A DNA stretch of 32,000 nucleotides. Origin: Massilicoli timonensis. Lineage in GTDB: Bacteria; Bacillota_I; Bacilli_A; Erysipelotrichales; Erysipelotrichaceae. The stretch is taken from assembly GCF_900199515.1 (NCBI RefSeq), contig NZ_LT963434.1, positions 1,083,272-1,115,271 on the forward strand. Direction: 5' to 3'. Positions 7,139 to 9,005 of the stretch are shown here, in pieces. The notes below the pieces were generated by a model that saw only the letters and a program-made list of their open reading frames with translations, did not search any database and was not told the origin of the DNA. The position numbers and the translations under genes were made by a program. Within the stretch, counting starts at the first letter, position 1; every line of letters starts with the position of its first letter.

Positions 7139-8812
7139 ATGTTACAGTCGAATAAAATCACCGCCCTTTACTGCCGTTTAAGTCAAGAGGATATGCAAGC
7201 CGGAGAAAGCGGAAGCATACAGCACCAAAAAATGATACTTCAACGCTATGCGGACGAACACCATTTTTTGAACACAAAGTTTTTTGTGGACGACGGATTT
7301 TCCGGCGTGAGTTTTGAGCGCGAGGGGCTGCAAGCGATGTTGCAGGAAGTGGAAGCCGGACGAGTGGCGACGGTCATTACCAAAGACCTTTCCCGTCTTG
7401 GCAGAAACTATCTGAAAACGGGCGAACTCATAGAGATTGTATTTCCCGAAAACGGAGTACGCTATATCGCGATCAACGACGGAGTTGACACAGCGCGGGA
7501 GGATAACGAGTTTACCCCCTTGCGGAACTGGTTTAACGAGTTTTACGCCCGCGACACAAGCAAGAAAATCCGCGCAGTTAAACAGGCACAGGCGCAAAAA
7601 GGCGAGCGCGTCAACGGGGAATATCCATACGGCTATATCCCAGACCCGAACAACCGCCACCACCTTATACCCGACCCGGAAACCGCGCCGATTGTCAAAC
7701 AGGTTTTCGCTATGTTTGTTAGCGGTGTGCGTATGTGCGAAATCCAAAAATGGCTTGCGGAAAACAAAGTCTTGACGATTGGAGCGTTGCGCTATCAGCG
7801 TACAGGACAGGCGCGGTATCAGCGGGCAATGATCGCCCCCTATACTTGGCCGGACAAAACGCTCTATGACATATTAGCAAGGCAGGAATATTTAGGGCAT
7901 ACCATAACCGCGAAAACTCACAAGGTATCCTACAAGTCGAAAAAGACCCGGAAGAACGAAGAAGAACAACGCTATTTCTTCCCAAACACCCATGAGCCGC
8001 TTGTTGACGAGGAAACCTTTGAACTTGCGCAAAAGCGGATTGCTACCCGCCACCGCCCGACAAAAGCAGCGGAGATTGATATTTTTTCCGGCTTGCTGTT
8101 TTGCGCTGGTTGCAGACATAAGATGTATTACCAACAGGGCGTAAATATCGAGCCGCGCAAGTTTTCCTATTCTTGCGGCGCATGGCGCAACAGGGCAAGG
8201 ACAGGCAGCGAGTGTACCTCTCATTATATCCGCAAAAACGTACTTCTTGATTTAGTGCTGGAAGATATGCGGCGGGTTTTGCGGTATGTTAAGGAACACG
8301 AACAGGACTTTATCTGTAAAGCTACCGAGTACGGCGACATGGAAGCGAGAAAGGCATTAGCGCAGCAGCAAAAGGAACTTTTCAAAGCACAGGCGCGTAT
8401 GACCGAACTTGACACGCTTTTCCGCAAGCTGTATGAGGACAACGCATTAGGCAGACTGACAGATGAACGGTTTGTGTTTCTAACTTCCGGCTATGAGGAC
8501 GAAAAGAAATCCCTTGCCGCAAGGATAGACGAGTTACAACAGCAGATCGCAACCGTTACCGAGCGAAAAAGGGATATATCAAGGTTTATTCAGATTGTCG
8601 GGAAATACAGCGACATACAGGAATTGACCTATGAAAACGTCCATGAGTTTATCGACCGTATTTTGATACATGAATTAGACCGGGAAACCAACACCCGGAA
8701 AATCGAAATCCATTACAGCTTTGTCGGACAGGTTGATACCGAGCAGGAGCCGACGCAAGTTGTCAACCATGACCGCCGCAACATGGTAGATGTAAAAAGT
8801 ATCGCTATCTAA
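7139..8812 (+). CDS. large serine recombinase (integrase/excisionase of E1)
   Basis: The track ORF starts at 7088, but ATG 7139 has SD GGAAAGGAGG. Resolvase-type N-terminus ([10 protein letters not shown], catalytic Ser), DDGFSG, RLGRNY, recombinase domain, a Cys-rich zinc-ribbon region (CAGCRHKMY...SYSCGAW) and a C-terminal coiled coil. Confidence 0.9.
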
Positions 8813-9005
8813 CCTCAGCAAAGTTCGCACCTGAGTAGCCGTCGTCGGTGTACCAGCGCAGATTGGTAAAGCCGTTCTGCTTGGCGTAGGCTTCCAAAAT
8901 CCGTTTCTGGTTGGAAATGGAATTGCTCTCGCCTTGCAATTCGTCCTCATGGGACAATCTCGGATAAAGGGCGGTAATGAGGTTTTGGGTGGCTTGTCTT
9001 AACAT
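8805..9005 (-). pseudogene. 5' fragment (about 62 codons) of the E2 large serine recombinase gene, interrupted by E1
   Basis: [62 protein letters not shown] aligns with the N-terminus of the E1 recombinase ([12 protein letters not shown]...DDGFSGVSF). It then runs into 4 junction-derived codons and a stop at the E1 end. Confidence 0.85.

Follow-up and report, generated by a model that had tools for sequence, protein, structure and literature searches.

A Tn1549-like conjugative element at the Phe62 codon of a recombinase gene in a tet(W) mobilizable element of Massilicoli timonensis, and the sites at which its relatives land

The stretch of DNA analysed here (the window) comprises 32,000 nucleotides of Massilicoli timonensis (RefSeq assembly GCF_900199515.1, contig NZ_LT963434.1, positions 1,083,272 to 1,115,271 of the forward strand; coordinates below are counted from its first letter). 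Two mobile elements meet within it. The first, E1 (1..8820, plus strand), reads as the right-hand part of a Tn1549-like integrative conjugative element; the second, E2 (8823..19306, minus strand), is to all appearances a mobilizable element of the IME_Rho_tet type, which carries tet(W) and lacks codons 63 to the end of its serine recombinase gene. What is left of that gene runs exactly up to the terminus of E1, and our argument is that E1 very probably entered the gene conservatively at the codon for Phe62. E2 in turn interrupts a host response-regulator gene, beyond which, between about 20 and 32 kb, come core genes usual in Firmicutes (DegV, WhiA, CofD, RapZ, TrxB, Lgt, HPrK and UvrA).

Over positions 1-8822 the window is 98-99% identical to loci L001-L006 and L022 (L006 only to 6837, where its contig ends), and the E1 block recurs at the same identity on many metagenome contigs and in one Subdoligranulum variabile record. 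Leftward of the block, L001, L004 and L006 carry conjugation genes (NlpC/P60, topoisomerase, ArdA/ArdC, and in L006 additionally a TraG P-loop/VirB4-type gene). The Type IV secretion backbone (VirD4, maff2, VirB4 and others) lies outside the window and upstream of the same 8.8-kb block in L001, L004, L006 and L022; left-end contigs of E1-type elements hold backbone genes as well. We considered and rejected a compact element of 8.9 kb: the block boundary 77 bp left of the window start falls inside a conserved ArdC-like open reading frame (ORF) and has no end-like sequence, and the real left end was located elsewhere. Because the block runs on into conjugation genes, and the 77-bp boundary is best taken as a mosaic breakpoint, E1 is read as the right-hand end of a conjugative element resembling Tn1549, whose TnpX-like recombinase is encoded at the extreme right. 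The window start falls within an ArdA/ArdC/YodL-type ORF of E1 (listed as 9-1115, plus strand), which is the C-terminal third of an ArdA/ArdC/YodL/LPD polyprotein of 1,115-1,132 amino acids (aa), intact in L007-L012.

The large serine recombinase gene of E1 (7088..8812, plus strand, stop codon at 8810-8812) has the architecture Resolvase, Recombinase, Zn_ribbon_recom and DUF4368, and just 5' of it stands a small ORF of the TnpW family (6888..7061, plus strand; Pfam PF14202, 56.4 bits). From the gene-caller start at 7139 the recombinase is 557 aa long, and this exact protein occurs on at least 1000 contigs; a match to the XisF model was also among the profile-search results for the window. The element ends in a right terminal inverted repeat (the P arm), AAAAGTATCGCTATCTAACCTCAGCA (8795..8820, plus strand), and the terminus reads ...AAAAGTATCGCTATCTAACC[T/C]CAGCA-AA. 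It is the same in L001, L003-L005, L022 and L182-L188 despite unlike flanks (at least six contexts), which include an AraC-type gene, a leucine-rich-repeat (LRR) protein gene and a 769-aa ORF. Two RNA motifs were recovered in E1 at the Rfam gathering level: a pemK motif (6732-6812, plus strand, 49 bits) upstream of the TnpW and recombinase genes, and 'Enterococcus sRNA 1300' (3864-4085, plus strand, 49.5 bits) upstream of the operon that contains the cargo gene.

That cargo gene (4312..5295, plus strand; Pfam Radical_SAM) encodes a putative RlmN/Cfr-like methyltransferase of 327 aa. It scores 277.6 bits against the NCBIfam RlmN model (cut-off 290) and 193-199 bits against the Cfr models (cut-offs 468-550); 'Cfr-like' thus describes a similarity, under every curated cut-off. 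A first-pass annotation, made by a model from the letters alone, had proposed that the two elements stack a Cfr/RlmN-like gene and tet(W): both genes are present, and the name of the former stands in this reduced sense. In L008 (about 13892-16468) a pair of ISL3 transposase genes directly adjoins the radical-SAM gene, which is called shorter there (300 aa).

E2 is collinear with the intact element of L017 at 85-97% nucleotide identity. From the junction with E1 onward, Pfam and NCBIfam models identify on its minus strand TnpW (9117-9323), a DnaC-like ATPase (9320-10159), RepA_N (10156-11007), Cys_rich_VLP (11023-11409), a relaxase (11399-13075), NikA/MobC (13038-13457), a methyltransferase (15189-15956), a helix-turn-helix (HTH) protein (16188-16643) and tet(W) (16725-18644). 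Its 5' end, established by junction reading (19285..19308, minus strand), consists of the terminal inverted repeat TGCTCATGTACGGTAAAGAAGC (19306 down to 19285) and an AA crossover at 19307-19308; in other genomes this end abuts at least 20 different flanks, and the homology of unrelated tet(W) plasmids to the window ends at 19308/19309. Natural ends of E2-type elements, read from 80 genome loci, are AA/TGCTCATGTACGGTAAGGAAGC on the left and ...CACATAAGCA/AA on the right (a slash marks a junction). The right end lies about 100 bp past the recombinase stop codon and the other end upstream of tet(W); the commonest target among the loci read is the MAFF2 ORF of conjugative elements.

In gene content and boundaries E2 agrees with the way IME_Rho_tet, the published tet(W) mobilizable element, has been described (PMC12904643), and judged by its sequence it appears to be that element. 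The distance from the 5' repeat (19285-19306) to the tet(W) start (18644) is about 660 bp, and the published figure is about 656 bp. IME_Rho_tet is defined there by a ribosomal-protection gene, a relaxase and a serine recombinase, co-located in one orientation within about 10.7 kb. In the window tet(W) and the relaxase are present and collinear and the recombinase is a 62-codon fragment; by the criteria of PMC12904643, which reports 1,090 'partial' elements, this copy would rank as 'partial'. Recombinase genes of the IME_Rho_tet type with 94-98% aa identity (L029-L108) come from records labelled Oxalobacter, Akkermansia, Lentisphaeria, Veillonella, Gordonibacter, Bacteroidales and Clostridia, a spread that points either to a very broad host range or to contaminated metagenome-assembled genomes.

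The host gene broken by E2 is of the OmpR type (19309..19862, minus strand; Pfam Response_reg on residues 14-124). Its reading frame continues into E2, as ...NMIVSKEML/MLMYGKEASNRKQ, to a stop at 19266, and the Pfam search found no output domain in the resulting ORF (19266-19862, minus strand). The C-terminal part, some 40 codons, should follow the whole E2::E1 composite. Likewise, the 3' repeat of E2 (TTTGCTTATGTG...), which is present in relatives that share the same insertion, would sit past the left end of E1, outside the window.

At the junction of the two elements lies the truncated E2 recombinase ORF (8805..9005, minus strand), of 66 codons and a stop. Codons 1-62 belong to E2 (8821-9005); the last codons, AEVR and the stop, lie at 8805-8819, within E1, whose terminus is defined independently across differing flanks. 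The ORF matches the Pfam Resolvase model (PF00239) at 27.6 bits (cut-off 23.3), with residues 12-61 on profile positions 2-46, and the fragment retains the serine-nucleophile region of the catalytic domain. Its first 62 codons are identical (62/62) to the N-terminus of the intact 539-aa recombinase of L062. A domain search found neither a Recombinase nor a zinc-ribbon domain in the 66-aa product; since the C-terminal domains are absent here and present in intact relatives (Recombinase, Zn_ribbon_recom and DUF4368 in L062), the window gene is a fragment. The first-pass annotation had described this ORF as a serine-recombinase N-terminus that ceases to be recombinase-like where the E1 gene ends and takes its last four codons from the junction and E1, and in all of this it was right.

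DNA homology to intact copies ends at 8821-8823, inside the Phe62 codon, and E1 ends at 8820. Intact E2-type genes read ...GGTGCGAAC-TT-CCAGCGGCCCGG..., and the window reads ...GGTGCGAAC-TT-TGCTGAGGTTAG..., the part after TT being the reverse complement of E1; because the two agree up to TT and then differ, the break falls on the TT of codon Phe62. A product identical over all 66 aa is encoded on 145 contigs, and a sister variant of equal length on 334, the carriers including NCBI genomes and assemblies with contig names (s20.ctg…, tig…) suggestive of long reads. The junction is genuine and not an artefact of assembly. Two other leads on this gene came to nothing: a class of 86-aa products arises from frameshifts in an error-prone assembly, and a 505-aa recombinase upstream of tet(W) in L008, considered as the missing remainder, has an unrelated C-terminus.

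If E1 had inserted into the gene, its left end should adjoin the other part. Metagenome contigs were scanned for recombinase sequence that begins at codon 63 and has before it some base other than the C of codon 62. This yielded 33 contigs, and in 33 of 33 an element end precedes the remainder: ...CTATCACACCTCATTA/TT (at greater length, ...GCCGCTATCGCTATCACACCTCATTA/TT) in 22, and ...TATCTAACGTCAGCT/TT (...AAAAGTATCGTTATCTAACGTCAGCT/TT) or close variants in 11. Both forms are imperfect inverted repeats of the right end of E1. The element side of these contigs carries the conjugation genes of the left part of a conjugative element, and over the coupling-protein/maff2 region one contig matches the E1-bearing element of record OY725877 at 95.5% identity. 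Seventeen of the 33 loci extend to the right-end region of E2, which with one exception lies about 1468 nt from the TT, and are followed by 15 distinct flanks, several of which are maff2. Database proteins of 470 aa annotated as 'recombinase' proved to be such remainders called from Met70; they added five contigs of the same structure, beside DUF6017 and DUF3801 genes, to bring to 38 the contigs in which codons 63 to the end are fused to E1-type left ends. A scan of viral contigs with residues 63-538 returned nearly always intact genes and no codon-63 junctions. On the minus strand of L088, at 6199-6717, a remainder that shares about 73% identity with that of E2 begins near codon 62 after unrelated sequence; its junction register is slightly off (…GTGAAAC-TC-CAGCGG), and tet-gene DNA cuts it short on the 3' side.

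Scanning viral contigs for the element ends alone uncovered two further structures. In L187, a 29.6-kb contig derived from an isolate genome, the right end of E1 is joined directly to a left end of the first type at 5316-5366, ...CTAACCCCAGCA-AA-TAATGAGGTGTGATAGCG (…CAGCA-AA-TAATGAGGTG…), which indicates a circular or tandem form of an E1-type element; as the ends are joined, the right end and that left end belong to one element. On the 60.6-kb contig IMGVR_UViG_3300029053_000343 a whole element of 26.6 kb is present, with its left end at about 13.6 kb and its right end at about 40.2 kb, so that in this relative both junctions around one element are found in one molecule. When its flanks are rejoined they form an uninterrupted ORF of 559 aa, ...FIDDGFSGTTF/NRPDFNEIMK..., with Resolvase, Recombinase, Zn_ribbon_recom and DUF4368 domains. 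This contig is direct evidence of conservative insertion into a recombinase gene at this codon.

The right junction, the left junctions, the joined ends and the intact target all share AA/TT, and the gene halves abut exactly, with no target bases duplicated or lost; we infer a 2-bp crossover, AA in the window (8821..8822), which on the minus strand is the TT of codon Phe62. The proposal of the first-pass annotation, that E1 integrated after about codon 62 at the DDGYSG.NF box, is upheld by the exact junction, its reciprocal in relatives, the joined ends and the 60.6-kb contig. It had also foreseen that the recombinase would resume at the other boundary of E1, as it does in the 38 contigs from relatives (the window starts inside E1), and had proposed a database search for uninterrupted copies, which showed the gene at full length in at least 80 reference genomes. 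We hold it very likely that E1 inserted conservatively into the E2 recombinase gene at the Phe62 codon.

How specific is the choice of this codon? When integrated left ends were searched for by the element end alone, 23 of 29 abutted a recombinase remainder. Each of the 23 aligns from the first flanking base as residue 62 in E2 numbering, and together they represent about 12 recombinase families, 29-43% identical to the enzyme of E2. Fragments at right ends tell the same story: DDGYSGANF (the window), DDGYTGTNF, DDGWSGTNF, DDGYSGLNF and DDGFSGTTF all end at the same Phe. Distinct half-sites of recombinase and non-recombinase targets alike, 22 from the C side and 11 from the N side, went into a consensus. 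Invariant in them are the TT crossover, GG at -11/-10 (11/11 N-side) and CC at +10/+11 (22/22 C-side), and the target core of E1 is the symmetric GG-N7-TT-N7-CC, which fits all 33 distinct half-sites. Where the target is a recombinase gene, the invariant Gly of 'SG.NF' provides the GG and the Pro of '.RP.F' the CC; the core being supplied by conserved Gly and Pro codons, many unrelated recombinase genes offer the same landing site. The recombinase gene of E1 itself reads ...GGC GTG AGT TTT GAG CGC GAG GGG (VSF-ERE), with the GG kept and GA in the place of CC, a substitution that may spare it from self-insertion. These comparisons support the view that members of the E1 family make a habit of inserting at a single conserved motif, which the recombinase genes of many other mobile elements contain. 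The first-pass annotation had suggested targeting of a conserved motif in a rival's gene, and a search for E1-like elements at the same codon of other recombinase genes; both led to a broader pattern than it envisaged.

Several observations weigh against the insertion of E1 into E2 at a preferred motif. The window starts inside E1, so that its own left junction is unread. The 15 distinct flanks at E2 right ends include none like the interrupted response-regulator gene (first bases, by inspection). OY725877, the only long record with E1 beside a recombinase fragment, holds no recombinase remainder anywhere in its 267 kb. In L009 (at about 7039) and L014 (at about 8583) the E2 remnant beside E1 is shortened and unrelated DNA follows, and in L018 and L019-L021 codons 1-62 abut ordinary chromosomal DNA without E1. 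Finally, about a fifth to a half of the sampled E1 insertions fall in non-recombinase DNA; specificity is not absolute.

Details of these loci are as follows. The element of OY725877 is truncated on the left, at the coupling-protein gene beside host clpC, and because of this its lack of a remainder is uninformative rather than contrary; fuzzy searches of this left-truncated record for an inverted copy of the right end of E1 found none. The cut points in L009 and L014 correspond to window positions 11967 and 10423, inside the relaxase gene or after the DnaC-like gene, and beyond them are host PTS/LacI genes or phage genes, as in further rearrangement or chimeric assembly. The fragments of L018 (4383-4688) and L019 (6038-6319; also L020 and L021) end at the same TT, with CBAH and thioesterase genes, or MFS, LarA, LDH and LigA genes, as neighbours, and the L019 flank carries CC at +10/+11. 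Recombination between two copies of E1 could have left them as hybrid sites; post-insertion rearrangement, or another route to this break, exists.

The alternative that gains most from these loci is secondary rearrangement: the right end of E1 would have recombined with a site in the E2 recombinase gene and deleted the intervening DNA, or two E1 copies would have recombined, leaving no remainder at the other boundary of E1 in this genome. The AA of E1 and the AA of the target are on the same strand, so deletion between direct sites is geometrically possible, and the fragment without a remainder in OY725877, the E2 remnants of differing length and the fragments beside plain host DNA speak for it. 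Against it, the OY725877 element is itself left-truncated, matching left junctions with complete remainders are common, a complete element is flanked by both halves of one gene in a single contig, and E2 in the window retains its proper 5' repeat and sits cleanly in the host gene. We judge rearrangement unlikely, and rate just as low the chance that the copy in this window is a deletion remnant.

Recombinases of this family, such as TnpX and TndX, are known to be relaxed in their choice of target, and E1 also occurs in the AraC-type gene, the LRR-protein gene, the 769-aa ORF and other non-recombinase DNA; the insertion could then be a chance event by a low-specificity TnpX-like enzyme that seeks no motif. 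That 23 of 29 left ends found blind to their flanks should share one codon across about 12 families, that at least five different N-terminal fragments should stop at the same Phe, and that GG and CC should be invariant in 33 distinct half-sites makes this very improbable.

A further alternative is that E2 is split by design, with its own attachment site inside the recombinase gene and the gene whole only in the circular form. It took its appeal from a word-indexed protein search with the 62-aa fragment as query, whose best 120 matches were all short products (56-109 aa), many of them diverging exactly after ANF. That list proved to be a ranking artefact which hid thousands of intact full-length relatives, and the bias toward short proteins calls for caution with fragment queries generally. 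A genome scan found 542 relatives of the E2 recombinase, of which the 80 retained are all full length at 94-98% identity; exact look-ups placed intact 538-539-aa proteins on at least 1000 contigs, so that intact genes are far commoner, and integrated copies with such genes are present in at least 80 reference genomes. Moreover, the real E2 ends are the repeats about 100 bp past the stop codon and upstream of tet(W) (PMC12904643), and no remainder stands at the other end of E2 in the window. We dropped the idea, to which we give almost no credence.

Equally negligible is a chimera assembled where two recombinase genes share a conserved motif: contigs do often break inside these repeated elements, and L009 and L014 could be chimeric, but the junction lies at the 3' terminus of E1 rather than at the motif as E1 itself carries it, has been recovered on hundreds of contigs, of independent origin in sample and assembler, and in NCBI genomes, and has a reciprocal junction and a joined-ends form that exist independently.

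The insertion of E1 into the E2 gene may then be pictured as follows. The E1 recombinase, presumably the catalyst, would join the attP of circular E1 (right end, AA, left end) to the site inside the E2 recombinase gene, with strand exchange at the TT of the Phe62 codon, the dinucleotide that the junctions, the joined ends and the intact target share. The reaction would be conservative, no bases being gained or lost; it would leave codons 1-62, with the catalytic-serine region, against the right end of E1 and codons 63-539 against its left end. If intact, the left junction of the window's own E1 would read ...GGCTTGAAATCCGGGCCGCTGG-AA-TAATGAGGTGTGATAGCGATAGCGGC..., or carry the AGCTGACGTTAGATAACGATAC variant, and leftward of it would stand codons 63-539 of the recombinase in antisense, then the 3' repeat of E2 and the C-terminal part of the response-regulator gene. 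Were E1 to excise precisely, the E2 gene would be restored as ...GGTGCGAAC-TT-CCAGCGGCCC....

While split, the E2 recombinase should be inactive, because the break sets its catalytic-serine region apart from both the remaining catalytic domain and the DNA-binding domains. The first-pass annotation concluded that the tet(W) element is locked in place unless the related E1 enzyme acts in trans, and suggested inter-element competition or hitch-hiking; E2 may indeed be locked, and competition or hitch-hiking may be involved. Action of the E1 enzyme in trans on E2 is doubtful, since the repeats of the two elements share little beyond ...AGCA-AA. An Owariibacterium genome (L030/L055/L056) has three intact IME_Rho_tet-type recombinase genes, whose products could act in trans.

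Traffic also runs in the opposite direction. About 4 kb from the left end of E1-type elements lies a maff2 gene, and in L150 and L165, about 1.9-3.9 kb from the left end, maff2 is interrupted by an element with an E2-type left repeat, AA/TGCTCATG... (…GGCGCGAA/TGCTCATG…). The maff2 gene of E1-type elements being hit by E2-type elements, nesting runs both ways, in the order of a mobilizable element holding a conjugative element that holds another mobilizable element. IME_Rho_tet-type recombinase genes show a second break, after VIVKD (about codon 85), in L116-L118 and L133, where an element with three large serine recombinase genes in tandem stands before the remainder; a pemK motif is found upstream of this triple block in L133, too. 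The matching N-terminal products of 105 aa (P0044, P0063, P0078, P0097) comprise hundreds of member sequences. A group II intron was considered as the cause of this class and rejected, as Rfam finds none and the insert is the triple-recombinase element.

E2 shares with IME_Rho_tet (Sidibe, Doublet & Leclercq, Microb Genom 2026, PMC12904643) its tet(W), class I methyltransferase, regulators, MobC, relaxase, replication-like genes and serine recombinase, in the same order, as well as the 5' repeat and its spacing to tet(W); relatives prefer MAFF2 ORFs. The window copy differs in having neither recombinase codons 63 to the end nor the 3' repeat within the window; the codons are lacking because E1 sits in the gene. 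The passages of PMC12904643 consulted report no interruption of the recombinase gene by a conjugative element.

For E1, the comparable systems are the Tn1549-family elements of gut Firmicutes, including ICE_Fpr918_intser (Sci Rep 2025, PMC12084326); relatives of E1 carry the DUF3801/pcfB, VirD4, maff2, VirB4, NlpC/P60 and topoisomerase backbone and a serine recombinase at one end. On ICE_Fpr918_intser that paper gives no junction, motif, consensus or frequency, and no recurrent targeting of many recombinase families. This one element name is the prior art located.

E1 also resembles the elements of TnpX and TndX (Tn4451/Tn4453, Tn5397, Tn6104), with which it has in common a large serine recombinase, a TnpW-family neighbour, a crossover of 2 bp, imperfectly inverted ends, a circular form in which the ends are joined, and a choice of several targets. 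The crossover of TnpX is reported as GA, and that of E1 would be AA. E1 differs from them as part of a conjugative element rather than a small mobilizable transposon, and in having as target a coding motif of other recombinase genes; the likeness is one of architecture. A 2-bp site has been described, and in Tn6104 a TnpX-related recombinase tied to excision and circularisation (PMC3158075).

The arrangement belongs among cases of 'matryoshka' nesting, where, as with E1, one element site-specifically enters a conserved gene of another. E2-type elements do so to maff2, and both nesting and integration into other elements' genes are already well known (PMC12084326; PMC12904643). Here, in contrast, the guest is conjugative and the host mobilizable, and the interrupted gene encodes the integration enzyme of the host element itself. 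Tn5053/Tn402, the 'res-site hunters', likewise home to the recombination module of other mobile elements. They differ in that they are DDE-type, resolvase-dependent and directed at res sites beside resolvase genes, whereas E1 uses a serine recombinase and cuts inside coding sequence. In the skin element in sigK and the fdxN element with XisF, a gene is split by a large-serine-recombinase element and can be rebuilt by precise excision. Those elements occupy host developmental genes, each at one fixed locus, whereas E1 occupies genes of other mobile elements, in many families. The term 'res-site hunters' occurs in PMC7765201, and gene-interrupting elements excised by large serine recombinases are treated in PMC5025042 and PMC3158075. 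In the open-access literature we came upon no account of a conjugative element family that has for its attachment site a conserved motif common to many genes for serine recombinases.

It is tempting to go further and to see in E1-type elements evolved 'integrase-gene hunters', a suggestion that we offer tentatively and think somewhat more apt to fail than to hold. Their attachment site would have been selected to match the most conserved recombinase motif of their rivals (G-x-N-F / x-R-P), so that landing disables the rival enzyme; their own gene would have drifted (VSF-ERE, GA for CC) so as to be no target; and, with IME_Rho_tet-type elements hitting maff2, a two-way contest would build nested multi-resistance composites. 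Were this true, any genome hosting such elements would offer a landing pad.

The target rule itself would explain how E1-type elements find targets across very different hosts, and should make their insertion sites predictable from sequence alone (GG-N7-TT-N7-CC within G.NF/.RP). The 66-aa and 470-aa 'recombinase' entries of the databases are two halves of one interrupted gene, and E1-type insertion may account for some of the 'partial' IME_Rho_tet copies. The main gut vector of tet(W) could lose its own integration enzyme for as long as the guest is present, while tet(W) is physically linked to the cargo of a self-transmissible element, here a putative RlmN/Cfr-like methyltransferase.

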